Made by a program: the position numbers and the translations under genes
Shown: positions 11,789-53,740 of the stretch, one piece after another
Layout: each line of letters starts with the position of its first letter
Numbering within the stretch: the first letter of the stretch is position 1
The notes under the pieces: model-generated
Database searches by the model: none
Told to the model about the DNA's origin: nothing
What the model saw: only the letters and a program-made list of their open reading frames with translations
Virus record (IMG/VR): IMGVR_UViG_2866816733_000004
Coordinates: 32,001-96,000 of that record
DNA length: 64,000 nt
DNA from: a virus
Taxonomy: Duplodnaviria; Caudoviricetes
Direction: 5' to 3' (one strand)

Positions 11789-11810
11789 CGCGGCATCGCC
11801 TGCGTCTGGA

Positions 11811-11910
11811 GCCGTCCCGACGTGGGCGGTTTTTCATGCCCGGACGCCGACATGGCGCCGGGCCCGCAACACCACGCGGCCCCGGCATGGGGTCGGTCCC
11901 GACATGGGAG
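11811..11910 (+). promoter_or_regulatory. four hairpins with GACAT-like loops in the scaffold leader; the first is followed by a U-tract and the last covers the RBS
   Basis: CCC-GACGT-GGG, CGCC-GACAT-GGCG, CCCC-GGCAT-GGGG, TCCC-GACAT-GGGA. Confidence 0.6.
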
Positions 11911-18021: not shown

Positions 18022-18087
18022 TCTTTGTGAGGCTTTCGGTCTCCTCCCTGAAGGGTGCCCTGGGTCGGGCAGGGAGGAGCGCCTGCC

Positions 18088-21000
18088 GTGGCTGTCGAAG
18101 TGGGCGGCGCGTTCATCTCCGTCCGCCCTGACCTCAAGGGCTTCCATACCAAGATCAAGACCGAGTTGCGGTCGATGGCGCCGTCGATGGTGTCGATCGG
18201 CCGTGAGTGGGGGACCGCGCTCCAGCGGGGGATCAAGGAGAAGCTCACCCCGATCGAGGTTCGCCTCGAAGCTGGCGCAACGGCCGCCCAACTGGCCACG
18301 TTGAATCGGGCCGTCGACAAGCTCGACGGCCGGGTCATCAACATTCAGGTCAACGCTGATGTGTCCGCTGCGGCGGCGCGCCTGGTGTCATTCGAGCAGA
18401 CTCTGTCGCGACTGGACGGCCGCAAGGTCAACGTCCAGATCAACGTCGACATGGCTGGCGCGGTCAGCGAACTGCTCGCGTTGGAGCAGGTTCTGGCCAG
18501 AATCGATGGCCGCCGCGTCAGCGTGCAGGTCGACGTTCAGATCGCGGGCGCTCTCGCCCAACTCGCCGCAGTGCGAGGCGCGGTCACGAACATCGACAAC
18601 CGCCGCACGATCAACATCGATGTCGATATCGGGTCGGCGATGGCCGGCCTTGGTGCGCTGCGCGCAGCGCTGATCGGCCTCGCTGTGGTGGCATCGCCGG
18701 CCCTGGTGGGGATCGGTGCCGGTGTTGTGGGTCTAGCTGGCCCGCTTGCTGCGGCGGGCGCGGGTTTCGCGGGGTTCGGGGCGGTGGCGCTGCCGGCGAT
18801 CAGCCACGTTTCCAAGGCACTGCAGCAGGAGAAGCAGGCCAGTCAGCAGTCTGCCGCCGCGTCGGGTCAGGCGGCGCAGCAGGCGTTCGCGGCTGCGTCG
18901 GCGCGGCAGCAGTTGGCGTCAGCGGTCCGCAACGCCGCGTACGCCCATCAGCAGGCCGTGGATCAGGTGCGGCAGGCCGAGCAGCAGTATCAGCAGGCGC
19001 TTCAGGGTGAGGCGGAAGCGCAGCGGGCGGTGACGCAGGCGCGGCTCGCGGCGCGCCGCGCGATCGAGGATCTACACAACCAGGTCGCCAGCGCCCGGCT
19101 GGGGTTGGAGGAGGCGCGGCTCGGGGTCGAGCAGTCCCGGGCGGCGTGGGACCAGATGGCCGCGGCGGCGAAGGCCGCCGCCGACAAGGTCGCGTCCGCT
19201 CAGTCGGCGCTGGCAGCCGCGCAAGCCGCGCAGGCGACGGTGCTGGGGAACCCCGCTGCGACGGACGCGGCGAAGAAGCAGGCCCAAACCGGCGTCGACG
19301 CCGCCCAGCAAGCGCTGAAGAACGCCCAGGCCCAGAAGAAGGCCGCCGATTTGGCGGCGCGGCAGGCCGAGCTGAACTACCGGCAGTCGATCCAGCGGGT
19401 GAAGGAGCAACAGCTTCAGCTGCGGCGGCTGGAGCAAGACGAGAGGTCCGCGTCCAAGGCCGGGGTTGAGGGGTCGGACCAGGTCAGGCAGGCACGGCAG
19501 CGTCTCGCGCAAGCCAACCAGCAGATCGCCAGCAGCGAACTTGCGTTGCGGCGGGCGCGGGAGAACGTCACCCGCACTGATCAGCAGTCTGCGGATCAAA
19601 TCGCGTCGGCGCGGCGGGCGCTGGCGCAGGCGACGTCGCAGGCGGCGGCGTCGACGGGCGCGCTCGGGCAGCAGCTGGTGAAGCTGACGCCGCTGGAGCG
19701 CCAGCTCGCGAACGCATGGAAAGACCTGACCGCGGTGTTCGGGGCATGGTCGAAGAGCCTGCAGCCGGCTGTCATCCCGGCACTGATCAAGGGCATCGGG
19801 TTCCTCAAGGCACTGCTGCCCACCTTCACGCCGATCGTGAAGGGCGCCGCGGCGGGGATCGGGACGCTGTTCGACCGAGCGACGCAGGCGGCGAAGTCGC
19901 CATTCTGGGCACAGTTCTCGCAGTTCCTGGGGCAGTCCGCCGGTCCGGCGATCTTGGGGCTCGGGTCGCTGCTGGGGAACCTCCTCAAGAGCCTCGCCGG
20001 GCTGGCTCAGTCGTTCGCGCCGATCGGGTTCGCGTTCCTGCAAGTCCTCAACGCGATCGCGGCACGGTTCGCGGCGTTCACCACGGGGCTGGCGAACAAC
20101 CCGGCCTTCCAAGCCTTCACCAAGCAGTTCATTGCGCTGGCGCCGCTGATGGCGCAGACGTTCATCAGCCTCGGCAGTCTTCTCGGTTCGCTGTTCGCAG
20201 CGCTCGCCCCGGCGCTACAGCCGATCCTCGGACTGATCAACACGCTGGCGTCGTCGCTGGCGGGTGTCCTGCGACAGGCCGGGCCAGCGATCGCTTCGGT
20301 GTTCTCCGCGCTCGGCTCCGGACTGTCCGCAGTGATCGTTGCGCTCGCGCCGGTGGTGACGCAGCTGGTGCAGGCGCTCGCACCGCTCCTCGTCCAACTG
20401 ATCAACGGGCTGAAGCCCATCCTGATCTCGCTCGTTCCCGTGCTCGGGCAGATCATTTCCGGTCTCGCCCCGGTCATCTCGGCTCTGCTGTCGGGGCTGC
20501 AGCCCGCGATCCAGTCGCTTGTGCCTGTGGTGTCGCTGCTGGTCGGCGCGATCGCGAAGATCCTGTTCGCGTTGGCGCCGGTGCTGCCTCTGGTCGGCCA
20601 GTTCATCGCACAGCTCGTCGCGGGCCTAATGCCGGTCCTGACGCCGATCGTGAACGCGATCGCGTTGATGGCGCAGCAGATCGCCGGAACGCTCATTCAG
20701 GCGCTTCAACAGTCCGCGCCAGCCCTCCAGCAGATGCTGCTGGCGGTTGCGAGTCTGCTTCCCGAACTGCTGCCGCTGGTGCCGTTGTGGGCCGAGTGGT
20801 TCAAGGCGATCGCTCCGCTGCTGCCGGTCATCATCCAGCTGGCCGCGGTGATCGTGCAGGCACTCGTGCCCGTCCTTCGCATCGCCATCAAGATCGTCGT
20901 CTGGTACTGGACGACGATCGCGCACCTGCTGCTACCGGTGTTCCGGCTGCTCGTCACCGTGATCACGTGGGTCGCGGGGATCCTCACGCCGATCATCCAG

Positions 21001-22977
21001 GCGATCGGGTGGCTGATCCGCGGCATCGGTACCGCCGCGATGTTCGTGTGGAACATCATCAAGATCGCGTTCGCGGGGATCGTGTTCGCCGCGAAGATCC
21101 TCGCCGCCGTGATCTTCGTGGTGGTCGTCGCGCCGCTATTGATCGCTTTCAAGCTCCTGCAGATCGCCTTGATGGCGCTCTGGCAGCACGTGTTCGTGCC
21201 CGCCTGGCACGGCATCTCCTGGGCCGCGCAGCAGGCATGGAAGCTCCTGCAGCCGCTATTCGGGCTGATCCGGGCAGGAATGCGGCTCCTTGGCTCTGTC
21301 ATGTCCTGGCTCTGGCGCAACATCGCCGTCCCCACCTGGAACGGCATCCGCGCCGCGATCAGCGTCGCATGGGGGGCCATCCGCGGAATCTTCAACGCCG
21401 TCGTGGGGTTCCTCCGCGTCACCCTCGGCCCGATCTTCACCTGGCTGCGCGACAAGGTCATCCGCCCGGTCTGGAACGCGGTCGGCTCTGTCATCAGGGC
21501 CGCGTGGACCGGAGCGATCCGCCCCACCTTCGACGCGGTCAAAAACGCGGTCGGGAAGGTCCGCGACGCGTTCAAGACCGCGGTCGACGGAATCGGCCGC
21601 ATCTGGGACGGCCTGAAGAAGATCACCAAGGGACCCGTCCAGTTCGTTGTCAACACGGTCTACAACAAGGGCATCCGGGCGGCGTGGAACACCATCGCCG
21701 GCCTGGTGAAGCTCCCTGGCCTCCCGGAACTGAAGTTCGCGGCCGGCGGTGTCGTCCCGGGCGGCGCCTACGGAGTACTGCCCGGCTACGCGCCAGGCCG
21801 GGACACGATGCTCGCGGCGGTGTCGCCGGGCGAGGCATGGATCCGGCCCGACGCCACGCGTGCCCTCGGGTCGAACTTCATCTACGGCCTGAACGCCGCG
21901 GCGGCGTCCGGAGGGACTACCGCCGCAGCGCGGTTCCTGTCGCAGGCGGGCGGCCCGCAGTTCGCGTTCGGCGGCATCGTCGGGAAGATCAAGGACGCTG
22001 TCGGCGGCGCGAAGAACCTGGTCGTGAAGGGCGCCTCGGACCTGCTGTCCAAGGGCGCGTCTTTCGCCGCCCGCAAGATCCTCGACCCGATCCTCGGGCA
22101 GCTCAACGAGGTCGCTGGCGACTCCAACTGGGTCAAGGCGATGACCCGGCTGCCGCGGCGGATGATCGACGGGTTCATCGGCTGGCTCAAGAAGGCCATC
22201 GACCCCAAGCTCGGCGGCGACGCCACCGGGGTCGTCGCGGCGGCGAAGAAGTACCTGGGTGTCGGTGACGACCGTGGCCGTGACAACGACAACCCGTTCA
22301 CCCGCCACTACGGGTGGCCGGCCGGTACGCCGTGGTGCGCGCTCTTCGCCTCGAAGGCGATCGAGGACGCGCACGCCACCAAGAAGTACTCGGGCGCACC
22401 CACCGCCGCGGTCGCCACGTTCAACGCGCAGATGCAACACGTTCCTGTCTCCGCAGGCCGCCCAGGTGACTTGGCGACCTACCGCGGGAACGGGCACGTC
22501 AACATCATCGAGAAGAAGGCCGCTGGCGGCTACATGACCATCGGCGGCAACCAAGGGCCCAAGGTCAACCGGTACGTGCGTGGCGGGCAGACCGCTGTGC
22601 TGCGTCCGAAGTTCGCGACCGGCGGGATCGTGCCGAGCATGGCGCGGCAGGTGTTCGGCAAGGAGTGGCTGCACGCCGACGACCCGGCCGACCGGCGAGA
22701 CCCGCTCGCCGCGATGTACAACCAGCTCGTCCGTCCGACCCTGTTCGACACCGGCGGTTGGCTCCCGCCCGGAGTCAGCACCGTCGCGAACTTCACCGGA
22801 CGTCCCGAGGCCGTACTCACCGACGGGCAACTCCGCCGCATCACCGCGGCGGAGGGCCGCGGCGACAGGCACGTGTCGGTCATGGACCACGCAACCGTGG
22901 TCGTGCAGGACCCGGTCGACATCGACATGCTCGCGCAGCGGCAAGAGTTCGCCGCCCGCAGCGCCTCCTTCGGATGA
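18088..22977 (+). CDS. tape measure protein with C-terminal CHAP-like peptidoglycan hydrolase
   Basis: About 1630 aa, Ala/Gln coiled coil and W-periodic repeats; PWCALFAS..GHVNII..TIGGNQ; FDTGGWL...GRPEAVLT. Confidence 0.93.
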   Translation: MAVEVGGAFISVRPDLKGFHTKIKTELRSMAPSMVSIGREWGTALQRGIKEKLTPIEVRLEAGATAAQLATLNRAVDKLDGRVINIQVNADVSAAAARLVSFEQTLSRLDGRKVNVQINVDMAGAVSELLALEQVLARIDGRRVSVQVDVQIAGALAQLAAVRGAVTNIDNRRTINIDVDIGSAMAGLGALRAALIGLAVVASPALVGIGAGVVGLAGPLAAAGAGFAGFGAVALPAISHVSKALQQEKQASQQSAAASGQAAQQAFAAASARQQLASAVRNAAYAHQQAVDQVRQAEQQYQQALQGEAEAQRAVTQARLAARRAIEDLHNQVASARLGLEEARLGVEQSRAAWDQMAAAAKAAADKVASAQSALAAAQAAQATVLGNPAATDAAKKQAQTGVDAAQQALKNAQAQKKAADLAARQAELNYRQSIQRVKEQQLQLRRLEQDERSASKAGVEGSDQVRQARQRLAQANQQIASSELALRRARENVTRTDQQSADQIASARRALAQATSQAAASTGALGQQLVKLTPLERQLANAWKDLTAVFGAWSKSLQPAVIPALIKGIGFLKALLPTFTPIVKGAAAGIGTLFDRATQAAKSPFWAQFSQFLGQSAGPAILGLGSLLGNLLKSLAGLAQSFAPIGFAFLQVLNAIAARFAAFTTGLANNPAFQAFTKQFIALAPLMAQTFISLGSLLGSLFAALAPALQPILGLINTLASSLAGVLRQAGPAIASVFSALGSGLSAVIVALAPVVTQLVQALAPLLVQLINGLKPILISLVPVLGQIISGLAPVISALLSGLQPAIQSLVPVVSLLVGAIAKILFALAPVLPLVGQFIAQLVAGLMPVLTPIVNAIALMAQQIAGTLIQALQQSAPALQQMLLAVASLLPELLPLVPLWAEWFKAIAPLLPVIIQLAAVIVQALVPVLRIAIKIVVWYWTTIAHLLLPVFRLLVTVITWVAGILTPIIQAIGWLIRGIGTAAMFVWNIIKIAFAGIVFAAKILAAVIFVVVVAPLLIAFKLLQIALMALWQHVFVPAWHGISWAAQQAWKLLQPLFGLIRAGMRLLGSVMSWLWRNIAVPTWNGIRAAISVAWGAIRGIFNAVVGFLRVTLGPIFTWLRDKVIRPVWNAVGSVIRAAWTGAIRPTFDAVKNAVGKVRDAFKTAVDGIGRIWDGLKKITKGPVQFVVNTVYNKGIRAAWNTIAGLVKLPGLPELKFAAGGVVPGGAYGVLPGYAPGRDTMLAAVSPGEAWIRPDATRALGSNFIYGLNAAAASGGTTAAARFLSQAGGPQFAFGGIVGKIKDAVGGAKNLVVKGASDLLSKGASFAARKILDPILGQLNEVAGDSNWVKAMTRLPRRMIDGFIGWLKKAIDPKLGGDATGVVAAAKKYLGVGDDRGRDNDNPFTRHYGWPAGTPWCALFASKAIEDAHATKKYSGAPTAAVATFNAQMQHVPVSAGRPGDLATYRGNGHVNIIEKKAAGGYMTIGGNQGPKVNRYVRGGQTAVLRPKFATGGIVPSMARQVFGKEWLHADDPADRRDPLAAMYNQLVRPTLFDTGGWLPPGVSTVANFTGRPEAVLTDGQLRRITAAEGRGDRHVSVMDHATVVVQDPVDIDMLAQRQEFAARSASFG

Positions 22978-27059: not shown

Positions 27060-28463
27060 GTGGCACGACTCGGTCGCGGCCAGCCCAACCGGCCTGTCGT
27101 CACCCGTACCTCGGTCAAGGGCCCGCTCCCCGGCACCGGGACGATCCAGGTCAACTTCACGCTGACCGGCACCGGCACCAAGCACGCGTCCGGAACCGGG
27201 ACCATCGCGCTCGGGCTCGCGCTCACGGGCACGGGCGTCAAGCACGCGCCCGGGGCGGGCGCCGTCGCCATCGCGTTCACCCTCACCGGCAGCGGCACGA
27301 AACAGACCGGTATCGGGTTGCCGCCGAGACCGCGGACCCGCTGGCAACTCATCCTTGGCCCCGCGTCGGGCGGCCATGAGCTCGCGTTGACGGAGGCGAC
27401 CGGCCGCCGCTACACGGCGCGGCTGACGGACGCGTCAGAGCTGGCGTTCTCTCTGGATGGACGGCACTCGCAGGCCGCGGCGGTCGAAGAGCTCGCTACC
27501 GATGTGCACGTGTTGTGGACCTCTGATGCGGGGGACAGTCGGCTGCTGGACCGGTGCCGGGTCGGTTCGACGCAGGACACCCTGGATGACGCCAAGCACA
27601 CGATGTCGGTTGGCTGCCTGGACTACAAGGCAGTGTTGAATCGGCGTCGGCTGTACTCCGACGCGACCCTCACCTACACCGCCAGCGATCAGGCCGAGAT
27701 CGCTTGGGCCCTGATCAACTACACGCAGGGCCTAGCCGGTGGTGCCCTCGGCATCGCCAAAGGATGGGTTGGGACAACACCGACGGGCGTGGTCCGTGAC
27801 CGGACGTACGAGGTCGGCGATTCCGTCGGCGAACGCGTCCAGGAGCTCAGCGAGGTCATCGACGGTTTCGACTGGGACGTCACGCCGGTCAGCGCGTCCG
27901 CTCTGCGGCTGGACGTGTGGTCACCGCAGCGGGGCTCTGATCGGGGCGTGGTTCTGGAGTTCGGCGGGATCGTCGCTGCGGCGACCAGGGACACCAACCC
28001 TGCCGACTACGCCAACGCGCTCCGGTATACCGGCGCTGCCGGTGATGACGTGGCCCCGGGCCCGACGGCTCAGGAGAGACAGGCCGGCGACATCGGCTCC
28101 GTCTTGCAGGGTCGCTGGGATGCGGTGTTCGGCGACGACGGCCTCACCACCCAGTCCGCGCTTGACGACCGCGCGGACTGGCAGCTGGCGCAGTCGCAGG
28201 TGGTCCGCCCGGTCTGGACGGTCACGCTGCGCGCCGGCGCGTGGGATGGGCCCGACCACATCTGGCTGGGTGACCCAGTCCGGTTGATTGTCAGATCCGG
28301 GCGGCTCGCCGTCGACACCACACTCCGGGTGTTCGAGGTCGAGATCGGGCTGGACGGCAACGGCGGCGAGTCAGTGCAGCTCGCGCTTGGCGGACCACGT
28401 CCAGACTACCGGAGGCGCCCGTCGCTGGTGGATCGGCGGCTGACGAACCTGGAGAGGCGGTAG
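27060..28463 (+). CDS. baseplate hub/minor tail protein (Gp37-like)
   Basis: VQELSEVIDGFDWDV, RGSDRGVVLEFGG, LGDPVRL; synteny. Confidence 0.72.
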   Translation: MARLGRGQPNRPVVTRTSVKGPLPGTGTIQVNFTLTGTGTKHASGTGTIALGLALTGTGVKHAPGAGAVAIAFTLTGSGTKQTGIGLPPRPRTRWQLILGPASGGHELALTEATGRRYTARLTDASELAFSLDGRHSQAAAVEELATDVHVLWTSDAGDSRLLDRCRVGSTQDTLDDAKHTMSVGCLDYKAVLNRRRLYSDATLTYTASDQAEIAWALINYTQGLAGGALGIAKGWVGTTPTGVVRDRTYEVGDSVGERVQELSEVIDGFDWDVTPVSASALRLDVWSPQRGSDRGVVLEFGGIVAAATRDTNPADYANALRYTGAAGDDVAPGPTAQERQAGDIGSVLQGRWDAVFGDDGLTTQSALDDRADWQLAQSQVVRPVWTVTLRAGAWDGPDHIWLGDPVRLIVRSGRLAVDTTLRVFEVEIGLDGNGGESVQLALGGPRPDYRRRPSLVDRRLTNLERR

Positions 28464-31984: not shown

Positions 31985-32039
31985 GAAGAATCTGAGGTGT
32001 GTCCATGACCTGCACGAACACATGCCCTACCCTGACCGC

Positions 32040-37366: not shown

Positions 37367-38416
37367 CTAGAACTCGATGTCGTTCATCGGGTTGTTCCTC
37401 CACTGATCTACGGCTCGGATGTAGACGAGGAGCACGGGGGAGTTGGGGTTCCAGCGACCATGCTTAGCGATCTCAGAGATAGGGACGCCTGCTGCGTAAG
37501 CGGTCGAGGCTGAGCCTGCCCGGAGCCCGTGGGAGGTGTACTTCGCGGGAAGGTTGGCGAGGACGCCACGGCGGTGGACGATATCGCAGGCGGACTTGCC
37601 TGTGAGGCGTACGGCGACTTTGCCGGCACTGTTGGGCTCGCCTCCAATTCGCCCGTGGCGGTCGACGGGGCGGAACAGAGGACCGTCCACCAGGCCCCGC
37701 TCGGCGAGGCACTCCTTCCATCCGTTGACGGCTTCGACCGGGCACATGTCGGCGCGCTTGCTGCGGGGGATGGCGACCCTGATGCCGCTGGCTTCCTGGT
37801 CGGTCTTCGACCGCTTTACATAGACGCTGAGCCCCTCGGGGGTTTCGATGGCGTCGTCCTGGTCGAGGCCGACGAGTTCGGAGCGGCGCGCCATCATGTT
37901 GAAGCCGAGGAGTAGGAGTGCCCGATCGCGTACGCCCTGCAGGGTCCTCAGGTCGCAGGTCGCGATCATGGCACGCAGCGCGTCGGGCATGATCGGTGTC
38001 GCCTGCTTCTCTCGGTTGCCGTCCTCGGCCCACTGCCTCCGGTAGGTCTTGAGGGCTTTGAGAGGTTTCTCGCTATCAGGTTCGTCCTGGCAGCCAGCGT
38101 CTGTGTGCTTGGAGCGGATCGTGGAGATTGCCTGAGCAATGGTGTTGGGGGCGCTCTTGCCCCTGCACATGTGGTTGACGTACTCGGTGAGTGTCTGCGC
38201 GGTGGCAGGGAGGTAGACGCGTCCTTCGTGCTCACACCACTCGCGGAAGTCCTTCCACGCCCGGTCGTATGCGATGCGGGTGTTCTCGGCGGTGGAGTTG
38301 ATGAGACGCTCAGCGGTGTCGGCGCTGATGGTGAAGTCGATGTCGCTGTACGCGACGGGCGGCGGCTCGGTAGGGCGAACGACGATGGGGGAGGAGGTGA
38401 CCTCTAGGTCGGACAC
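37367..38416 (-). CDS. Cre-like tyrosine recombinase/resolvase
   Basis: NTRIAYDRAWKDF.EWC (SAM-like), RDRALLLLGF...RRSELV, RSKTDQ, HGLRAG, HGRW, YIR. Confidence 0.92.
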   Translation of the reverse strand: MSDLEVTSSPIVVRPTEPPPVAYSDIDFTISADTAERLINSTAENTRIAYDRAWKDFREWCEHEGRVYLPATAQTLTEYVNHMCRGKSAPNTIAQAISTIRSKHTDAGCQDEPDSEKPLKALKTYRRQWAEDGNREKQATPIMPDALRAMIATCDLRTLQGVRDRALLLLGFNMMARRSELVGLDQDDAIETPEGLSVYVKRSKTDQEASGIRVAIPRSKRADMCPVEAVNGWKECLAERGLVDGPLFRPVDRHGRIGGEPNSAGKVAVRLTGKSACDIVHRRGVLANLPAKYTSHGLRAGSASTAYAAGVPISEIAKHGRWNPNSPVLLVYIRAVDQWRNNPMNDIEF

Positions 38417-43819: not shown

Positions 43820-44034
43820 CACGACACCCGGTGGATCTTGATGCGGCCGATGCGGAACATCCACTCGTTGGTAGGGCCGTCCTTCTTGACGCGGGACGGT
43901 ATGTAGACGACGTCGTCGGCCCTATCCGGGTTGGTGGTGTCGGCTTCGAGTTGCTCGACGTCTCTTGGGGGTAGGTCGGCGTACAGGGTCTGGGCGGGCC
44001 CGTTGGCGGGCCGGAACTCAATCTCGATCTTCAA
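43819..44034 (-). CDS. hypothetical protein
   Basis: 71 aa, AGGAG RBS. Confidence 0.5.
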   Translation of the reverse strand: MKIEIEFRPANGPAQTLYADLPPRDVEQLEADTTNPDRADDVVYIPSRVKKDGPTNEWMFRIGRIKIHRVS

Positions 44035-44052
44035 GGGGCTCCTCTGGAGGGG

Positions 44053-44328
44053 TTAGGCCGCGGCCTGCTGGCCGGGACGAGCGGTGTCGGCGAGCGCGAA
44101 CAGGCGCTTCCAACCGGCGACGGTGAGCTGGTAGCGGACTCCGCCGTCGACCGACTGGACGATGAGGCCCCCGCGGGCCTGGACGTCGATTTGCGTCTTG
44201 ACGGTGTCCGGGGTTAGCCCCGCCACCGTTGCGATCTCGCGGCACGTTGACGGGCGCTGTGCGGCGCGGAGGATGGCGTGCTCAACGTCGTCCCAGATGC
44301 TCGACGAGAAGCGGTTGGTCGTGATCAT
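44053..44328 (-). CDS. winged-HTH protein
   Basis: STCREIATVAGLTPDTVK.QI.....GGLI......RYQLT..G. Confidence 0.68.
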   Translation of the reverse strand: MITTNRFSSSIWDDVEHAILRAAQRPSTCREIATVAGLTPDTVKTQIDVQARGGLIVQSVDGGVRYQLTVAGWKRLFALADTARPGQQAAA

Positions 44329-44346
44329 TGGAGAGGCCCTCTCGGG

Positions 44347-46419
44347 TTAGGCGGCGCACCTATAGCGGCCGGTTCGGGGTCGGGTGAGATAGCCGGCCTC
44401 GACGAGTTCCTTCAGGAGGTCGGCGACCTGGCGGTGCTTGAGGCCAGTGGCGGCTTCGATCTCCACGGGGCGGGTAGCGCCTGCGTGGACGGCGTTGACG
44501 ATCGCGAGTCGTGAGCCAGCGAGCTCGGGAAGGCCGCGGCGTGGCGAGGCTGGTGCGATGTTCTCTAGATCTGCGGGGATGAGTGCGCGGGGGAATTCGA
44601 TGACCTCGCCCATCTCTCCCTGTGCGGTCGTGTCCGGAGCGGGCTGCGGGGTTCGCATGTCATCGGGCAGGATGCCGCTGCGGAGCTGCTCAATCCGCGC
44701 GGCTGATGCCACACGACCTGCGGTTGAGGACTCGTGCCGGTCTCGGTAGGCGGTGCCTGCCGCGAGCGTCGCTGTCGCGGCGAGCGTGTCCAAGGCAACA
44801 CTCGGCTGCGTAGCGAGCCAGCCCCGGGCGACCTCCGAGCTCTCCCCCGGGGTGGTGTTGCGGTTCCGGAACGGCGCGGTCCGGGTCCCCGTTTGCGGGG
44901 TGCCCTGTATGTACCCGTATCCGGGGATGTCCGGGAGGTGGCGTGGATCCACATCCAACCCGGGCATCAGTGAACCAGCCGTCTTGGAGGACACGTGCAA
45001 GGCGATGGCGTTGCCGGCCATGATGTTCATCCGCAGGGCCTCGGAGTTCCCGAAGGTTTCCAGGCCGGGGTACTGCGACAGGCAGATGAACGCGATGCCG
45101 ACTTTGCGTCCTTCGCGGGCGATCTTTGCCCACCACGGTTTCCACGCCTTCACGCTGAATGGGTTGTGACACTCCTCCACGACGAACAGCAGCCCGGGCC
45201 GCTGGGGGGACGGGGTGAACCCGGTCAGGCCCTCGTAGGAGTTCTCCTCCCCGCGCGCTTTGAGGATCTCCACCGCGGCGAACAGCATGTCCTCGGCGTT
45301 GACCATGGTGCCGAACCAGTCGGCGTGCTCGGCCAACGCCGGCGACGATCCGCCGCCCTGAGGGTCGAGGTACCAGAACACGGTGTCGCCACCCGACAGC
45401 GCGGAGATGACCTTGTTCTCCGCGACGCGGGATTTTCCGCTGCCGGTGTCGCCGATGATGGCCATCGACCACATCGAGCCACTGGTGTACAGCCGAGACT
45501 TGGCTTCACCGGACCCGTCCGCCCAGGGGCCGAGGCCGATCAGTCCGTTCTCGCGGCGAGGGCCGTCGAAATTGACGGCGCCGGTGATGGGCGAGTGCTC
45601 AATGACCTGCAACCGGAACCGGGACGGGTACTTCTTCCCGGTGACCGGGTCCGGCGGCGCGGACTCGGCGATGAGGTGTTCGAATTCCTCCTCCAGACCC
45701 GTGGCGATCTTCGGGAGGGCGGCGACAACGTTCTCCAATGTCTGCTTGCCGCGGTCAAGCTGCCCGAGGAACTCATGCCCGTACTGGGTCGGCTTGGGAA
45801 GTGTGAGCTTGGAGTTGGCGAGTGGCCCGCCCGGGCACCCGATGAACGCGTCCCAGTCGTCAATGATCCGGGTTGCCCGGTTGATCGGTTCCTCCTGGTG
45901 CACTGCTTCTGGTGCCTCCTCGGGCGGTGGATAGCCGAGGCGGATGTGCTGCCACCAGCGGGCGGCGAGCCCGTACTCGACTGCGGCGAGGGCGGCGATG
46001 TCACTGGTCGCCACGCCGTAGGGCGCGACGGTCAGCCAGCCCGCACCGAACAGGCCACCTAGGAGGACGCGGCGGCCGAGGCGCCGACGGTGGCGCCTGG
46101 CCCGCTTCGACGTCAGTAGGGCTAGGGGGACTGAGATCCCGGCGAGGATGCCTGACATCCCTGCGGGGCTGACGGCGCCGACCGCCGAGATCGCCTCTGC
46201 GGCCACACCAGCGCCCAGCACGGAGCCCGCAAGCAGGTGAGGTAGCAGCGGGCGCCGGCACCGCCACACCGTGGCGTACAGACTGCGTTGGACTCGCACG
46301 CCGACGCTTTCAGGGCGCCACTCATCCTCGCCGGACTCTTCCCGCAAGTCGGCAGAGCCGGTTTGCTCCTCTTCGCGGAGATCTCCGACGTCAGGTGTGA
46401 CCTTGACGAACGTGGGCAT
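44347..46419 (-). CDS. traB: FtsK/SpoIIIE-like conjugative DNA translocase (TraB-like)
   Basis: N-terminal TM helices, Walker A GDTGSGKS, Walker B VVEECH, IAREGRKVGI..SQYP, C-terminal wHTH; followed upstream by Spd-like genes. Confidence 0.88.
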   Translation of the reverse strand: MPTFVKVTPDVGDLREEEQTGSADLREESGEDEWRPESVGVRVQRSLYATVWRCRRPLLPHLLAGSVLGAGVAAEAISAVGAVSPAGMSGILAGISVPLALLTSKRARRHRRRLGRRVLLGGLFGAGWLTVAPYGVATSDIAALAAVEYGLAARWWQHIRLGYPPPEEAPEAVHQEEPINRATRIIDDWDAFIGCPGGPLANSKLTLPKPTQYGHEFLGQLDRGKQTLENVVAALPKIATGLEEEFEHLIAESAPPDPVTGKKYPSRFRLQVIEHSPITGAVNFDGPRRENGLIGLGPWADGSGEAKSRLYTSGSMWSMAIIGDTGSGKSRVAENKVISALSGGDTVFWYLDPQGGGSSPALAEHADWFGTMVNAEDMLFAAVEILKARGEENSYEGLTGFTPSPQRPGLLFVVEECHNPFSVKAWKPWWAKIAREGRKVGIAFICLSQYPGLETFGNSEALRMNIMAGNAIALHVSSKTAGSLMPGLDVDPRHLPDIPGYGYIQGTPQTGTRTAPFRNRNTTPGESSEVARGWLATQPSVALDTLAATATLAAGTAYRDRHESSTAGRVASAARIEQLRSGILPDDMRTPQPAPDTTAQGEMGEVIEFPRALIPADLENIAPASPRRGLPELAGSRLAIVNAVHAGATRPVEIEAATGLKHRQVADLLKELVEAGYLTRPRTGRYRCAA

Positions 46420-46499
46420 CGCCTGCTCCTCGCGCGTGAACCGGGGGACGTGGCGTCGGGTGAGGCGCCCGACCTCTGTTCGGGCGCCCGGACTCAACG

Positions 46500-47507
46500 T
46501 CAGTCCTGGGTGACGAACTCCTTGTCGCCGGCGCCCTGACGGGCCTGGTAGGCGTCCTTGACGACCATGTCGGCTTCGAGTTCGGCGTGTGCGTCGTCGA
46601 ACGCGGCGGTCAGATGGCTGGCCAGATCCTGGGCGAGGGCGAGCTTGTCGATGACCGCTCCACTGACCCCGGCGTTCCGCATCGTCGAGATCGATATCTC
46701 GGTCGATGCCACTGCGGCCCCCGACTGGGTGGCCATCTCCTGGGTCCACCGCAGTGCGGCGATCAGGTTGGTGGTTTCTCCGGACACGATGTCCTCCTTG
46801 GTGATTGGTGGGGTGGAGCCTTTGCTGCGCCACCGGCTCAGGTCGGTGACGGTCCCTCCGGAGGCCTTGCCGCTGGCGGTGACTTCCTTGTCCTCCTGCT
46901 CGGGGACCACGGGCGGCGCGGCGGCTTGACGGGCTGCGGTGTCCGCCTTCTGCCGGGCGGTCTCCGTCTCCCAGCAGCTGCGGCACGCGAGGACGGTGCC
47001 CTCCGGGGCATGTGAAAGGTGGAGTGGTCGGAGGTTGGCCAGCCGGAACTCGTGGTTGCACAGGTAGCAGCGGGCATCTGGCGCTTGAGGCGCTTCGGCC
47101 GTGGGATCAGCGGACGGCCCCGCCGAAGGCCTTGCAGAAGCCTTAGCGGAGGGTGCGGGGGCCTGGTCGTCGACGGAGGGGTCCATGCGCTCGTTGATCT
47201 CGTAGGCATGATCCTCGGCGTCGGCGAGATCCTTCTTCGCCCATTTGCTGCGGCGACGCGCGGCGGCTCTCTTCGCCATCCGGGCTCGCCGCTCATCGGC
47301 GGACGCGCAGGCATCCGACCAGGCGTTGGCGAAGAACCGTCGGCCCGGGCCCCCACCCGAACTGCCCTTACTTCGCTTCCAACGCTCTTGCTCGCGCCGG
47401 AAACTCGGCGGGTCTTCCCCGCGGGCCTTCCACGACAGGTCCTGGACGGTGTTGCGGGTCAGGTAGTAGGCGATCCACAACGCCAGCAGCAGGTCGAAAC
47501 CCATCAC
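46500..47507 (-). CDS. transfer-region protein upstream of traB
   Basis: N-terminal hydrophobic segment, CxxC...CxxC, C-terminal GETT...VKDAY....AGDKEFV. Confidence 0.62.
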   Translation of the reverse strand: MMGFDLLLALWIAYYLTRNTVQDLSWKARGEDPPSFRREQERWKRSKGSSGGGPGRRFFANAWSDACASADERRARMAKRAAARRRSKWAKKDLADAEDHAYEINERMDPSVDDQAPAPSAKASARPSAGPSADPTAEAPQAPDARCYLCNHEFRLANLRPLHLSHAPEGTVLACRSCWETETARQKADTAARQAAAPPVVPEQEDKEVTASGKASGGTVTDLSRWRSKGSTPPITKEDIVSGETTNLIAALRWTQEMATQSGAAVASTEISISTMRNAGVSGAVIDKLALAQDLASHLTAAFDDAHAELEADMVVKDAYQARQGAGDKEFVTQD

Positions 47508-48894
47508 GACTCCCCAAGATCGGAGACGAACGCGGCGACCTTGGTGTTGACCGTTTCCACTGCGTCCCCGCCGGTCTTCCCGAGGGACCCGCCGATCACT
47601 AGGGCCAGCAGTGTTGGCATCACGACCGCGGCGAACTGGGCGCCCTTGTCGGCCTGCTTGTCGAAGGAGATGTCGGCGACGGCGATCCCGACCATGATGA
47701 TCGTCACCGCGACCGACACCGCGAGCACCAAGTCCGGCTCGTCGGCGAGGTCAGCCGCGCCCTTCCCCACAAACGACACCGAGCCAGCGACCCCCTTGCC
47801 GACAACGGTGTGGGCCAGACCACACCCGGCAGTCGCGGCCAGCAGCATCGTGATGACAGCTACGGCCTTGGCGTTGCGCTGCGAGTTCACTCGCTTGTTG
47901 AACACGTACAGCGTCGCCAGACCGGCGAGCAGCACAACCCATCCCATGATGGTTCCTCCTTTGCTTTAGATGAGCCACGACAGTGGCGGGGCGTGGGACA
48001 GCAGCCACAGCAGCAGCAGCGCCGCGGCGAGCCGGGAAGGTCGCTCGGCGATCCACTCGATGACGGCGCATATCGCGATGGCGGGGAGCGCGACGGTGAG
48101 GGCGTACACCTGGCCGACCTTGCGGGCGGCGCCGTCCTCGGTGGTCCACTCGCCGCGGGTCGTGTACGCCCACACCTTCGCGAGGCCTGCGCGGTCCTTC
48201 GACCACACGTCCGGTGGGGTGAAGGTGACGCGGACCCACGCGGTGACCTCCGCCAGATAGTCACGCGCTGTGATCGTCGAGGTTTCCGCACTGTCGGGTT
48301 GTGACTGTGCGGCTTCGGGGTTACTCTCGCGCGCACCTGCGCGCGTTGCGCGTTGGGTTTCTCCCTCGGGCAGAAAGTCACTGTGCGGACCGCACTGTGC
48401 GGACTGTGCGGTCCCCCGCTCAGGCTCACTGTGTGTCGCCGTCACCGGCTCCTCCTTCCGTCTTGCGGTACAGCCGGTTCCCGGCGTCCACGAGCATTTG
48501 CACGAGCCGTTCAGCGCCTTGCGGGTCCGGGTGGGCCGCGAGCCCGGCCCGGTAGTGATCGGCTGCGATCATGACCCTCGCCCGCGGATCTGTGGTCGCG
48601 GCGAGCGCCTCGTTCAGGCGTTGCAGGCGGCGGGGGAACCGGGCCGTTCGGCGCATCGGCTTGCCCTTCGCGCGGCGGCTACCGGCCACCGGTGCCACCG
48701 CCCGCCAACTGCAACACGGCGATGACCGCGACCAGGACCAGCAGCACGGCTCCGGCCATGAGCAGCGGACGGACCAGAGCGGCGCTCGGCACCGCTAGGG
48801 CGACGATCAAGAACCAGGTGAACGTCGCACCAGCCGCGGACCACACCGCGGCGATCTTGAACCCCGCCTTCGAAGGGAATCGCTGGACGATCAC
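47504..48894 (-). other. four coupled small genes, mostly Spd-like membrane proteins (47504-47947, 47966-48445, 48426-48698, 48679-48894)
   Basis: Hydrophobic multi-TM ORFs between the DUF2637-like gene and traB. Confidence 0.6.
48289..48435. repeat. ACTGTGCGG direct repeats (candidate clt/TraB-recognition repeats)
   Basis: Perfect copies at 48304, 48380, 48394, 48403; degenerate copies near 48290 and 48428. Confidence 0.6.
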
Positions 48895-50273
48895 TGGTTC
48901 ACCGCCTCCTGGTTCGCGTCCTGGTTCACGAGTTCGCGTGCCTCGGTGAGCCGGTTGTAGGCGGTGGTTTTGGTGAACCCGAGGCGTTCGCGAACCACCC
49001 CGAGGGTCACCGCATCCCTGCCGAATTCACGGATGAGGTTCACGACTAGTTGAACCTCGGCGGTCTTCTTCGCCGCACGGTCAGGGAGGTTCGCGGTGCT
49101 ATGAACCTGGTGGGCCTGCTTGGTTCGCGGTTCGGCAGGGGGTTCTTGAACCTGTGGTTCAAGAACCTCGGTTCGCGTTCCCTGCTTCGCCGTGGGCGGT
49201 TCAAGTTCGCGAGGCTGGTGAACCTGAACCTTCGCTGGGCGAGGTTCGTGAACCTGCTCCGCGACTGGTTCGTGAACCTCCACCTGAACCGGCCTTTGTA
49301 CCTCGGCGCGAACCTCGACCCGCGTCGGCGTGAACTCCACGGGCGTGAACTGCCGTCCCTGAACCATGAACCCGGTTCGCTGAACCAGTGACGTAAACCC
49401 CGCCCATGGCGCCTCCGGGGTCAGGTTCGCGAGCGCGTCCGCGTTGTACATCGACCCGAGTTGGGCGATGAGCGCTTGCTGCCGGGCCGGGTCTGCGGCG
49501 AGGCCAGCGTGCGCGACCGCAGACAGCATCGCCCGGTCGAGGCGGTGCTTGGCGAGGTCGATCCGCCAGTCCCGTGCGTCATCCCGGCGGAGTCCACGGA
49601 CCTTAGCGGCGGCCTTGGCGACGCGGGTGAGGCGCCGGTGCGCGTCGACCTCGGAGGCGGTCCGGCCAGACGGCTCCGCGATGCGAAGCCACACTAGGAC
49701 CCGCTCCGGGGTGAGCCGCAGGTGGATCGTGGAGCCGCCGCGGGCCCGGCGACGTTCGATCGACATGCCCCGTTCCCACAGCCACGCTGCCAGCAGAGGC
49801 ATCGCGAGCCGGAACGCCGCCTCGGGCCACTCGTCGGCGTCGGTTGCGGAGAACGCGCCGGACAGGGCGGTGACGACCCACACGGCTATCCCGTCGATGC
49901 CGGCCTTGGCGTCCTCGGGGATCTCGGCCTCGCGGATGTTGCGGCGGGCCCGCATCGCGCACGTGAACGTCACCAACTCGAGGACAGCGAACGCGACGAT
50001 GCGGAGCTCGACAGGGAAGTCGAGGATGTCGCGGAAGAACCGCCACATGCCCTGCGCGGCAATACCGGCGGCGATCACGGCGACGACGAACGTGAGCCGG
50101 TTCTCCAGACTCGCCTTCGCCTCAGGCGCCCCATCGGTCTTGCGCTTGGCGGGCCGCCAAGCCAGGAACGCTTTCCAGGTGAGGACGCCGACGAGGACAG
50201 CCCCACCGGACACCAGGTACGGCCACGCGTCGGCGGCGACCGCCTCAAGTTCGGTGAGGGACGGGGCGTTCAT
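48891..50273 (-). CDS. SpdB/DUF2637-like multi-TM protein with C-terminal HTH
   Basis: About five TM segments; C-terminal VTLGVVRERLGFTKTTAYNRL. Confidence 0.72.
   Translation of the reverse strand: MNAPSLTELEAVAADAWPYLVSGGAVLVGVLTWKAFLAWRPAKRKTDGAPEAKASLENRLTFVVAVIAAGIAAQGMWRFFRDILDFPVELRIVAFAVLELVTFTCAMRARRNIREAEIPEDAKAGIDGIAVWVVTALSGAFSATDADEWPEAAFRLAMPLLAAWLWERGMSIERRRARGGSTIHLRLTPERVLVWLRIAEPSGRTASEVDAHRRLTRVAKAAAKVRGLRRDDARDWRIDLAKHRLDRAMLSAVAHAGLAADPARQQALIAQLGSMYNADALANLTPEAPWAGFTSLVQRTGFMVQGRQFTPVEFTPTRVEVRAEVQRPVQVEVHEPVAEQVHEPRPAKVQVHQPRELEPPTAKQGTRTEVLEPQVQEPPAEPRTKQAHQVHSTANLPDRAAKKTAEVQLVVNLIREFGRDAVTLGVVRERLGFTKTTAYNRLTEARELVNQDANQEAVNQ
48896..49428. repeat. dense GGTTC/GAACC array with GGTTC-NN-GAACC palindromes inside coding sequence
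   Basis: About 15 GGTTC and 15 GAACC counted by eye in about 530 bp; palindromes at 49141, 49156, 49243, 49267. Confidence 0.88.
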
Positions 50274-50593
50274 GCCGCCTCCCGCACAGACACGGTGAGG
50301 CGGCTACGCTTCATCTTCCGGCGCTCCCGCTCCGACAGCCCGCCCCACACACCGAACCGTTCGTCGTGGGCGAGGGCGTACTCCAGGCACTCGGTCCGCA
50401 CCTCGCAGACGAAACAGGTTCGCTTCGCGGCCCGGGTGGATTCGCCCTTCTCCGGGAAGAACGCGTCCGGGTCGGTCTCGGCGCACAGGGCGCGCTCGGT
50501 CCAAGCGGGCACGTCAACGACCGGCAGGGCGGGCGGTGCGGGCGACTCCCACGGCAGTTGGACACGGACGTTGCGGGGTCGAGGCGCAGGCAT
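50270..50593 (-). CDS. whiB: WhiB-family transcription factor
   Basis: WTERALCAETDPDAFFPEKG...CFVCEVRTECLEYAL...FGVWGGLSERER. Confidence 0.95.
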   Translation of the reverse strand: MPAPRPRNVRVQLPWESPAPPALPVVDVPAWTERALCAETDPDAFFPEKGESTRAAKRTCFVCEVRTECLEYALAHDERFGVWGGLSERERRKMKRSRLTVSVREAA

Positions 50594-50696
50594 CGTAGTG
50601 CTCCTCAGTAGGGAAGAGGCTGGCCGGACGGGGTCCGGGTGTCGGGCTGCGAGGTGGGTCGCCGCGGCGGCCGCGGCTTCTGCTGGGTCTGGCGTG

Positions 50697-51074
50697 TCAC
50701 GGCGCACCGCCCACAGCGGGTGAGGTGTCGAGGCGCCAGCCGCGGATCGTGTTCGGGCTGCGGCGCAGGATCCGGTCGGCGACGAGGCCGGGGACGGTGC
50801 CGCCGAGGTAGTCGACGCGACCGCAGATCGACAGGGTCGGCTGCCGGTCGGCGCCGTTGTCGGTGTACGGGGCCAGGAGCACGGCGAGGTCGGGATGGTC
50901 GCGGGGGTAGATAGCGACGCGTACGGCGTCACCGCGGTCCATGAGGTAGCCGCTGTGCCAGACCCAGTCGGGGCCGGTGTGCTTCTGCGGGCCGTTGAAG
51001 ATCCCGGTGACCGTGATCTCGGCACCGACGCAGTGGGCGCCGGAGACCACAGCCTGGATGCTGGAGGTGGTCAT
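50697..51074 (-). CDS. possible OB-fold nucleic-acid-binding protein
   Basis: EITVTG...W....L.D.GD.VRV.IYP...SICGRV pattern. Confidence 0.45.
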   Translation of the reverse strand: MTTSSIQAVVSGAHCVGAEITVTGIFNGPQKHTGPDWVWHSGYLMDRGDAVRVAIYPRDHPDLAVLLAPYTDNGADRQPTLSICGRVDYLGGTVPGLVADRILRRSPNTIRGWRLDTSPAVGGAP

Positions 51075-53740
51075 TCCGCCTCCTTGGGGTAGTACTGCGC
51101 GCATGCCTCGGCGGTGTCGACTGCGTCCTGCCCGCGGCGCGGAGGCCACGTCGCGTCCTCGAGTTCGGCGAGCAGCTCCTCGTCCTCGTCGGGCAGTTCG
51201 ACAGTCATCGACTCCGGGTGAGAGGACGGGGGCTCGTTGATCGCCTTCACGGTGGACCCACACGCAGAACAGAAGAACCAGGGGCCGTACCTGCGGCCGC
51301 TACCGGAGGTCTCGGCGGGCTGGAACTGCCAGATGTGTTCGCCGGAGAGGCGGTGCCACAGGCGTCGCAGAGCGTTCACCGCGGCTCACCCCGGTCCCGC
51401 AGGTTCGCGGCGGCCTGGTCCACGGCGGCGAGGGCCCGGATCGCGAACAGCTCACCCTGGATGAACTCGGCCTCGCCGCTGTCCACCGCGTTGGTCAGCT
51501 CGCGGATGTAGGAGACGCGGCGTTCAGCGTTCATCCCGGGCGGCGGGTCCGCGAGCTTCACGATCCCGCCGGCGAAGTGGAACCCGTACGGGGTGCCGTC
51601 CCCAGCCGTGTCCTCGACCGTGTACTGGAACAGTGCCGTCAGCTTGAACCGGTGCCCGGGCTTGCTGGTGGTGCACTCGCAGACCAGCTTGGGTGCGCCC
51701 GTGTCGCCGCGCAGTTCGTGGGTGCCTTCCAGCCCGTAGCGGCGCAGGCCCATGAAGACCGCGGCCTCGCCGGCTTCGTAGGTGCGGCGCCCGAAGGTGA
51801 TGGTGCCGTTGCTCACAGGGTCACCTCGCGGTTGAGGTCCGCGGCGTGCACGGCATGCCCGTGGGGGCAGCGGTAATGGATCGGACCCTCGTCCAGCGCG
51901 ACGCCCTCATGGGCGGGGCAGTGCGCTGGCGGACGGGTCGACGGGGCGGTCAGGACCCGGGCAGCGGTCATGTTTCGCTCGACCAGGTCAGAGGCGGTGC
52001 GGATCATGACGCGGCCTCCTGCGGTGGGTGGTAGCCGGCGACGGCTCCGAGCCATGTGGCGTGGTCGGCGACGGCGGGGGTGGTGGCGACGTGAGCACCG
52101 GATGCCTGGAGCAGCAGGGCGAGGAGCGCGTCGGCGGACACGCCGGGCGCTGGACGGGTGTCGATGCCGAGGGCGTCGAGCATCTCGCTGAACGCGACCC
52201 TCGCTGCGGCCAATGGCAGCGCATCGACGGGAGATGCGGGGGCGGGGACGACCGTGAGAGCCGGCCGCTCGATAGCGGGGGCGGTCACTTCTGCCTTCCA
52301 TGCTGCTGCCGGTCGTAGGCGTCCCGGACCTTCTTCGGCTCGCCGCCCGGGTAGGTGATGGTCTGCTCGTCGGTTACGCTGGTGAGCATCGGACCTGCCT
52401 TCTTCGCAGTGGGTGAGCGTCCTACTGGCCCCGCCCTGGTGTTCCAGCACCGGGCGGGGCTTCGTGCTGTACGGGGAGCTCTCCGCCGCCCCGCGCGGGG
52501 TCTCTGCCACAGAAGTGCCAAGAGCCTGGACGGGCCTCAGTTCTTGTCCGCGAGGACGTGGCGCGCCATGTCTGTGGTGATGTCGCTCCGGCGCTGGCCG
52601 TAGCGGATCTCGGCGTACACCTCCTCGGGCGTGAACCTCGGATGCTTCGCGGCGACTTCGAGGATGAATCGGGTTTTGGCGTCGTCGAGGTCGGCAGGCG
52701 CTGGCGAGGTACTGCGCTGGAGGGGGCGACGGACGGACCGCTCTCGCTTGTCGGAATAGGTCATCGGTCGTTCTTCCTACTGGTGGATGTGGGGTGGAGC
52801 CCTCCGCCGCCCCGCCCATCAGGGGACCTGACACGAGGGCGTCAGCAGACGAGACGGCGGAGGAGATCATGACGACGCCTTCAGCACAGTGACTTCGTCA
52901 TCGGGGGCCAGGCAGAACGACATGCTTGGGTCGTCGGAGAGCGTCAGGTACACGGTGGGCGCACCACCCTCGCCGTGCTCCCGGTAGGTGGCCTTCACGA
53001 CCGTCGGCCACCGTCCGCCGGCCTTCGTGATCTGCTGGTTGTCGCGGACAGGGCGCCGCCGCCAGCGGGACTTGTAGCGGCACACAACCTTGGTCACGCT
53101 CTGGTCTTCGCGGACCTCGCGGGCCTGGATCGTTTGTGTCTGCTGCTTGCCGCTCATCGGGGCGTCCTCCGGCGCAGCCGCTGGAGGAACACCTGGACCG
53201 GCACCAGCGGCGGTAGGTCGCCGCACGCTGGGCAGTCGTCATGCTGGTGCGAGACGTCGCTGCACTCGGGGTCGAACACCTCGGTGACCTGACCGACGAC
53301 CAGGACGTACACCGCGAGGACGAACCCGGTCCCGAGCAGCAGCTTCGAGTCCTGGATGAAGCCAGTGGCCCCGAGCAGGATCATCGAGATCATGGCCGGG
53401 GAGGGGAGCGCCCGGACGACCCGGCGTGCCTTAGCAGTGCCGTGCGGCGTCGTTCGCTCGGGCTCAGCGTGCGCGACTGTGTGGTGGATGGACAGCGGAT
53501 GGGGGCCCCGCGAGATTCCACGCAGCGTGCGCGGAGTTTCCTCGGGCGTCGGCTCGCCTCTGCCAGACGTGATCATGAGTGGTCCTCTCTCGGTGGGAAG
53601 ACGGTGCGCCAGGCGTCGACCAGGGCACGGCCCCTGTACGAGCCGAGCCGCTCGAGGTACTCCTCGGCAGCTGAGCGCGGAGTGTCGGCGTTGACCTGCG
53701 TCTTGGTGGCTGGCTCGACCTGAGCCGCGGTGTCTTCACG
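51071..53740 (-). other. run of small coupled hypothetical genes (51071-51379, 51376-51816, 51813-52007, 52004-52288, 52285-52389, 52537-52764, 52867-53157, 53154-53576)
   Basis: Repeated ATGA/GTGA overlaps on the minus strand. Confidence 0.55.

Follow-up and report, generated by a model that had tools for sequence, protein, structure and literature searches.

A 64,000-nucleotide stretch of viral DNA (positions 32,001 to 96,000 of IMG/VR record IMGVR_UViG_2866816733_000004; hereafter the window), which belongs to a conjugative prophage-like element of an actinomycete, includes a gene that encodes a 460 aa protein with an N-terminal membrane domain and a C-terminal helix-turn-helix (HTH) domain. 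This gene, here termed the membrane-HTH gene (positions 48891..50273, minus strand), carries within its own 3' coding region a dense array of the pentamer GGTTC and its complement GAACC. The sites of this array are built with rare codons through selection on DNA and not on protein, and among relatives of the gene the array motif is tracked only by the HTH that this same DNA encodes. The array may thus serve as the cognate site of the HTH that it encodes, through which the element would be tethered to the transfer and spreading machinery at the membrane, a proposal that is given about an even chance of being correct.

A pentamer array written into the membrane-HTH gene

A total of 30 GGTTC/GAACC sites were counted directly, on both strands, at positions 48896..49428 (533 bp), with 15 sites per strand. 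Dinucleotide-preserving shuffles of the whole window yield an expectation of about 1.1 sites per 533 bp (about 134 per 64 kb), and the genome-wide density of 2.24 sites per kb yields about 1.2. When the entire 10.2-Mb assembly was scanned, the array proved to be its densest 500-bp cluster of the motif (29 sites), and only two other clusters were recovered, with 13 and 12 sites, on contigs C65 and C144. These two (C65:10800-11500 and C144:45900-46450) are one-stranded tandem repeats that are unrelated to the array; one encodes a repeated DA(W/R)FGEA-like peptide unit that is pentapeptide-repeat-like by eye, and the second consists of degenerate tandem units of about 19 bp (GTGGCGGTTCCCGTCCCGC).

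The array spans codons 282-460, corresponding to the last 40% of the open reading frame (ORF), and covers the DNA encoding a predicted disordered linker and the HTH. In the orientation of the gene, its sites use five of the six combinations of motif and reading frame, encoding V-H/Q/R, G-F, E-P, R-T, and N-L/Q. Some of the sites are paired as 12-bp palindromes, with four exact copies of GGTTCNNGAACC (49141-49152, 49156-49167, 49243-49254, and 49267-49278) and one copy with a single mismatch (48985-48996), all within the array. The 64-kb window holds no exact copy of GGTTCNNGAACC beyond these four, including at any promoter-like position, while 17 others are present elsewhere in the genome, where about 13 are expected in total. 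Across 212 sites from seven elements, the extended consensus is GGTTC-R-S-G and the commonest arrangement of neighboring sites is the inverted GGTTCNNGAACC (GGTTC-NN-GAACC; 19 pairs), followed by neighbors on one strand that are 12 bp apart (24 pairs) or 24 bp apart (8 pairs listed).

Codon usage in the C-terminal part of the protein that is encoded by the array (the tail) identifies DNA as the level at which selection has acted. GTT accounts for 54% of the valine codons in the tail, whereas its share is 6% across 22 genes of the element and 0% in the 5' portion of the membrane-HTH gene, and GAA accounts for 50% of the glutamate codons, versus 23% in the element. When the same peptide was redrawn synonymously from the codon usage of the element, 5.3±2.0 sites were obtained and the highest count among 5000 draws was 13, versus the 30 observed; permutation of the tail's own synonymous codons yielded 12.3±2.4 sites with a maximum of 21. 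These tests rule out an artifact of a repetitive protein. Further, the motif does not end with the linker and runs on through the conserved HTH-coding part as far as the C-terminal peptide VNQ..NQ..VNQ, which corresponds to three GAACCAG sequences at a spacing of 12-15 bp and therefore appears to be dictated by the motif.

The ORF of the membrane-HTH protein is supported by 318 homologues and by conserved synteny, and a full-length AlphaFold model built from 54 of these homologues suggests four parts. An N-terminal membrane domain (aa 1-178; 49740..50273, minus strand) comprises five predicted helices, modeled as long hydrophobic helices at residues 6-39, 56-82, 88-114, 128-144, and 149-178. 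A helical juxtamembrane domain follows (aa 189-281; 49431..49709, minus strand), with many residues that are invariant among the 54 homologues. The linker (aa 293-393; 49095..49397, minus strand), whose DNA contains most copies of the motif, is predicted to be disordered, with a predicted local distance difference test (pLDDT) score below 50 at residues 320-393. The C-terminal domain (aa 393-459; 48897..49097, minus strand), with the VNQ..NQ..VNQ tail, is modeled as a three-helix HTH with a pLDDT of about 96 in the full-length model and of 87 when folded alone. The positive-inside rule, applied to the charged loops, suggests an N-out/C-in topology, such that the HTH should be cytoplasmic.

Searches for known families placed the two ends of the protein only distantly. 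No family was detected in Pfam or PHROGs, and Pfam returned no match even at E<=10. Residues 56-201 align with a protein from a Streptomyces linear plasmid (BLASTP E=3e-14), which itself scores 31.5 bits on PF10935 (DUF2637; cut-off 22.8) and lies in the same GntR-WhiB-X synteny, suggesting that the N-terminal membrane domain is distantly related to DUF2637. A profile of the C-terminal domain searched against the PDB placed three TetR-family chains on top, aligned on their HTH, at weak E values of 0.01-0.04, and the best Foldseek matches were likewise to the TetR family (E 0.35, probability 0.91, template-modeling score 0.54), none of which passes a strict threshold. The ligand domain of TetR is absent from the membrane-HTH protein. 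When 401 genomes of the order were searched in six frames, the C-terminal profile matched weakly in open frames that were mostly 190-250 aa long, a length typical of TetR-family regulators.

A first-pass annotation, made by a model from the sequence alone, had described a membrane-HTH gene with about 30 copies of one pentamer in about 530 bp, roughly one being expected by chance, evenly split between the strands, used in different reading frames, often forming GGTTC-NN-GAACC palindromes, and spanning both linker and HTH, with selection acting on DNA and not on a protein repeat. The counts, the site positions relative to the modeled domains, the codon tests, and the predicted structure presented above agree with each part of that description.

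Array motif and HTH type among relatives

The 318 database relatives of the membrane-HTH protein derive mostly from Streptosporangiales. Their first 290 residues are conserved while the tail is modular. The DNA of 114 tails was examined, with k-mer enrichment scored against each tail's own locus, and a total of 25 of the 114 contained an array at p<1e-8. All eight genes that encode the same type of HTH as the window gene (type A, KTTAYNRLTEAREL; the window gene, L081-L086, and L094) carry 21-47 GGTTC/GAACC sites in the tail, and this copy number has been kept although the linkers have diverged in sequence. By comparison, the 106 non-type-A tails contain at most three such sites each, with a mean of 0.7. 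A second type of HTH (GRHIPAEKLAKALSIGKPAALELVKQ; GRHIPAEKLAKAL...ELVKQ) is accompanied by 11-25 copies of GGACC/CGGACC, versus at most six in other tails, and in these arrays GGTCTCGGACC-like units occupy both strands; a gene with a variant of the helix of this second type (L016) has GACCAG in place of GGACC. A third type is accompanied by GGGAC (28 copies in L039 and 16 in L035), and relatives in IMG/VR carry GGTAC, GCGACC, GTGTCA, or CGTAC arrays, each with its own type of tail. It should be noted that L035 (Nonomuraea fastidiosa, 10682-11400) seems to be frameshifted, with its HTH, which is in frame in L039, readable only in another frame past the stop and its GGGAC array kept, and that the 51 CCGTAC copies in the IMG/VR tail L124 result from a long tandem PRTDE peptide repeat, which is a true tandem repeat and not comparable evidence. 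The prospect raised in the first-pass annotation, that the in-gene k-mer might differ from homologue to homologue in step with the HTH, is thus borne out in 8/8 type-A genes for GGTTC and, with other HTHs, for GGACC, GGGAC, GGTAC, and GCGACC.

Arrays are far from universal in the family. In the largest subfamily (tail ...YRALWKLEP..HGIVDTGTFP), 78 of 83 clustered tails lack an array, counts that are coarse, as single-linkage clustering placed several IMG/VR tail types in this cluster. A scan of genome contigs recovered almost only this array-less subfamily, which served as a negative control, and a megablast search of positions 44000-52000 of the window against plasmid and phage collections returned no match. 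On a finer scale, the base that follows GGTTC differs with the sequence of the type-A helix, being A in 20/21 sites with the helix KGTAYNRL, A or G about equally with KTTAYNRL, and G in 37/47 and 20/28 sites in the two genes with KTTAFHRL. This co-variation of helix and base could be a readout of base-specific contact and is suggestive only, given small numbers and few independent lineages.

A natural exchange of tails within one species separates the array from other candidate readers. The elements represented by L082 and L087 are near-isogenic and both derive from Actinomadura viridis. Their TraB translocases are 98% identical (93% over the C-terminal 95 aa), their WhiB proteins are 99% identical, most of their other genes are 83-100% identical, and the first 328 residues of their membrane-HTH proteins are 86% identical. 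Beyond residue 328, the tail and its array have been replaced, such that L082 has 28 copies of GGTTC and L087 has 20 copies of CGGACC. With TraB near-identical and the arrays swapped, the array is not the TraB recognition locus (clt), a candidate that is also rejected by the converse comparison, in which elements that share the GGTTC array have TraB C-termini of only 23-74% mutual identity. The regulators of the elements fare no better as candidate binders, since the distribution of WhiB, GntR, HTH_31, and HTH_17 proteins does not track array type: GntR-type and HTH_31/DUF5753-type regulators are each found with both array types, and the HTH_17 and HTH_31 proteins of L087 (CGGACC) are 73% and 64% identical, respectively, to those of L083 (GGTTC). 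The occurrence of both array types in one host species also makes a host factor unlikely as the reader.

Just downstream of the CGGACC-type tail in L087, a separate 123-aa ORF (11533-11904; L093) specifies an HTH of the GGTTC type that has diverged to 56% identity, has the helix TTAHYRLAEARR, and is without a GGTTC array. This ORF may be what is left of the tail displaced by the incoming cassette.

Proposed tethering function and its alternatives

At least four unrelated HTH types, each with a distinct two-stranded motif, make cognate binding the economical reading of these data, and the sequence comparisons are compatible with the following mechanism. The five N-terminal helices would seat the protein in the membrane, perhaps in an oligomeric state like that reported for SpdB2, and the HTH would hang in the cytoplasm on a flexible linker of about 100 residues, able to reach DNA. 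The roughly 30 half-sites, some paired as 12-bp palindromes and overwritten onto the DNA that encodes the linker and the HTH, would be its target; 20-50 sites would provide high avidity and could engage many copies of the protein. The double-stranded DNA of the element would then be held at the membrane beside the Spd-like proteins and the TraB translocase that are encoded just downstream. Such holding would serve intramycelial spreading, transfer, or segregation, through hand-over across septa or hyphal walls or through retention in sporulation. Capture in cis might be favored, speculatively, because co-transcriptional membrane insertion would already keep the protein's own gene at the membrane.

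The closest parallel is provided by the SpdA proteins of Streptomyces plasmids, namely SpdA2 of pIJ101, with its site sps, and SpdA of the plasmids pSVH1, pJV1, and pSN22 (Thoma et al. 2014, PMC4170104). SpdA2 binds a 12-bp palindrome (sps) inside its own gene, spdA2, and affects plasmid stability; synonymous removal of the palindrome results in 16-21% loss of pIJ101 (PMC4170104). SpdA also interacts with the Spd/TraB spreading proteins, and a later proposal makes it the connection between DNA and the translocation apparatus (PMC4447253). The first-pass annotation had suggested that the membrane-anchored protein binds an array in its own gene, acting as a centromere plus tether for spreading, partition, or transfer that is always inherited with its site; given SpdA2, in-gene binding is less unprecedented than that annotation implied. 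Both systems place the sites within the coding region of the binder, or here the candidate binder, on a TraB-type conjugative element. However, SpdA is a small soluble protein (117-163 aa) with an N-terminal DNA-binding part, whereas here the HTH is C-terminal and fused to a five-helix membrane domain, and sps (CGTCACGTGACG) occurs in 1-3 copies and is conserved across plasmids, whereas here 20-50 sites are present and the motif differs by HTH type. The C-terminal 69 aa of the membrane-HTH protein gave no BLASTP alignment with pIJ101 SpdA2 (L090 7970-8377, minus strand) at E<=100, and CGTCACGTGACG with up to one mismatch was absent from the window, while the positive control, pIJ101, returned two exact copies. 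These comparisons suggest that the membrane-HTH/array system is analogous, and not homologous, to SpdA/sps.

Similarities to other systems are more partial. Like the array and its candidate binder, the TraB-clt system of Streptomyces conjugation pairs a cis locus of short repeats, on an element that transfers double-stranded DNA in actinomycetes, with a membrane-associated protein that has a C-terminal HTH-type domain. In that system, 8-bp direct repeats are read by the C-terminal winged HTH (wHTH) of TraB, whereas the array does not co-vary with TraB and, in place of direct repeats of 7-9 bp, consists of sites in both orientations, some of them forming palindromes. A better candidate for the clt of this element is a set of four exact direct CCGCACAG repeats (48305..48411, minus strand), located about 500 bp downstream of the array, inside the 5' coding part of the ORF at 47966-48445. 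The unit matches the clt repeat of pJV1, CCGCACA[C/G][C/G] (PMC3583192), and the same 8-mer is clustered in L081, a relative from A. decatromicini (around position 11818), whose TraB C-terminus is 74% identical to that of the window; these repeats are the likely clt. The spread protein SpdB2 of pSVH1 is, similarly to the membrane-HTH protein, polytopic and about 400-460 aa in length, and its gene likewise precedes traB in the spd operon. Its C-terminal part is cytoplasmic and contacts DNA, as is proposed for the membrane-HTH protein, and SpdB2 homologues have been reported on actinophages (PMC4447253). SpdB2 is an oligomeric, pore-forming protein that binds double-stranded DNA non-specifically, whereas a sequence-specific HTH with a cognate array is proposed here, and a BLASTP comparison with pIJ101 SpdB, the only SpdB so compared, detected no similarity (best E 6).

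The centromeres of type II and type III partition systems (parC/ParR and tubC/TubR) comprise many closely spaced short sites that are bound cooperatively by a small DNA-binding domain, and Noc and RacA tether specific sites to the membrane or the cell pole. The 12- and 24-bp same-strand spacings of the array recall tandem 12-bp centromere repeats, but here the candidate binder is an integral membrane protein, its sites lie in its own ORF, and no ParA-like gene is present on the contig of the element. ParA-like (PF13614) matches were found on other contigs only and not on this 104-kb contig (C222), in a search that did not extend to actin- or tubulin-like partners. No published description of the membrane-HTH/array system was found, and a search of the DUF2637 literature returned unrelated papers only.

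Several considerations weigh against tethering through a self-encoded array. The assignment of the HTH relies on a confident three-helix model, and its likeness to TetR_N is weak. The centers of paired half-sites are 7 bp apart, which by our own reasoning is closer than in a classical TetR-type operator. As 78 of 83 tails in the largest cluster are array-less, an in-gene array is not needed for the basic function of the family. Moreover, the HTH and the array are contiguous, such that co-inheritance as a cassette would by itself generate much of the co-variation, and deletion of SpdA2/sps from pIJ101 has a mild phenotype only (PMC4170104). To these is added the strong self-complementarity that the array gives to the mRNA, which is considered below.

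The main rival to tethering, although unlikely, is that the array is an intragenic operator, with the HTH, perhaps while free of the membrane complex, coating the 3' part of its own gene and acting as a roadblock to RNA polymerase that throttles the translationally coupled spd-like genes downstream and traB, which is toxic when expressed without regulation. The operon is tightly coupled, and the gene precedes the small membrane genes and traB in it; in Streptomyces plasmids, repressors control traB, a kil function (PMC4447253). The co-variation data fit this possibility as well as they fit tethering, and the two are not exclusive, since autoregulation of downstream kil-type genes could be a second function alongside tethering. 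Yet 20-50 sites far exceed the need of a roadblock, no copy of the palindrome is in a promoter-like position in the window, dedicated GntR or HTH_31 regulators are already present on the elements, and a permanent membrane anchor would be odd for a repressor. It is less probable again that the array is read by something other than the HTH in cis, be it TraB, a regulator of the element, a host protein, or, in a pac-like manner, the phage terminase. The element does carry a phage packaging module, and some phages have intragenic pac sites made up of short repeats. Loci of the clt type are also repeat arrays that can overlap coding DNA (PMC3583192). As readers, TraB, the other regulators, and a host protein are at odds with a TraB that is 98% identical between elements with differing arrays and 23-74% identical between those that share an array, with the separate pJV1-like clt repeat, with regulators that do not track array type, and with the different arrays in one host species.

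Further down in probability is that the selected feature is structure in the mRNA or in single-stranded DNA, arising from pairing of GGUUC with GAACC, with a role in stability, attenuation, or a single-strand origin. The 540-nt RNA of the array folds with -250.4 kcal/mol, versus -212.1±6.4 for shuffled sequences (z = -6.0), and the arrays of four relatives yield z = -3.9 to -6.2. Stability of the RNA, however, follows automatically from inverted pentamers, and the commonest unit, GGTTC-NN-GAACC, would leave a loop of 2 nt and cannot form a hairpin. In addition, the array of L094 is largely one-stranded (30:9) and has z = -1.15, indicating that RNA structure is real in most arrays and not conserved, and such structure leaves the change of k-mer with HTH type unexplained. 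Least probable, and by a wide measure improbable, is an absence of function, in which replication slippage, or a linker of low complexity rich in V/Q/E/P, would have produced the density of sites incidentally. The linker is indeed disordered and compositionally biased, and the L124 tail shows that true tandem peptide repeats do arise in the family. Against this, the sites are on both strands and in five frames, need the rare codons GTT and GAA, reach into the well-conserved HTH-coding part and shape the VNQ..NQ..VNQ tail, and are kept at 21-47 copies across diverged linkers.

Genomic setting and implications

The membrane-HTH gene is part of a tightly packed operon. Its start overlaps the stop of a whiB-like gene (50270..51025, minus strand, given as the maximal ORF, with the WhiB domain at its 3' end; PF02467, E=4.5e-25), to which it is translationally coupled in an arrangement common to all relatives, and at its other end it shares an overlap of stop and start with the small membrane gene that follows. 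Downstream are genes for small membrane proteins, a conserved gene of about 335-415 aa, and a TraB/FtsK-like translocase of about 690 aa (44347..46419, minus strand, from the ATG at 46419; the maximal ORF extends to 47061), with Nudix and tyrosine-integrase genes beyond. Matches of the TraB C-terminus to wHTH-like domains were weak and below Pfam cut-offs. The order WhiB, membrane-HTH gene, small transmembrane genes, TraB is conserved, and the layout is that of the spd-tra operons of Streptomyces plasmids and actinomycete integrative and conjugative elements (PMC4447253).

The same window contains, at positions 1-31000, a complete siphovirus-type module, including a large terminase (5904-7577), a major head protein (12614-13576), a tape measure protein of 1640 aa (18055-22977), and a minor tail protein (27060-28463); an integrase is encoded at 37367-38416. 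The membrane-HTH family was detected on 26 IMG/VR viral contigs, its carriers being proviruses of about 65-105 kb, and a large terminase was present in three of the five IMG/VR proviruses checked (the records behind L122, L123, and L129). These elements therefore look like hybrids of phages and conjugative elements, and, with packaging genes and a TraB transfer module together, the results presented here bear on the biology of such hybrids.

More tentatively, and with a likelihood well short of that given to tethering itself, the membrane-HTH genes may be self-contained, NTPase-free tether cassettes that prefer to act in cis, in which a swappable HTH plus array would set specificity or incompatibility groups for hand-through in the mycelium. 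If true, such cassettes would add a new class to the known DNA-positioning systems and supply the cis site that is missing for the spreading of actinomycete plasmids or phages. For the spread of Streptomyces-type elements through the recipient mycelium after TraB-mediated transfer, the one DNA target so far defined for Spd proteins is that of the small SpdA/sps pair, with its mild phenotype. The family described here offers a candidate protein-site pair, with a cis locus of 20-50 sites, natural variants of specificity, and a near-isogenic swap within one species, and the array can be recoded synonymously, which provides a built-in control. The array is also a case in which selection at the level of DNA has overwritten a coding sequence and forced rare codons into a linker, and overwriting of this kind by an in-gene motif could be useful as a signature in the search for other in-gene binding arrays.

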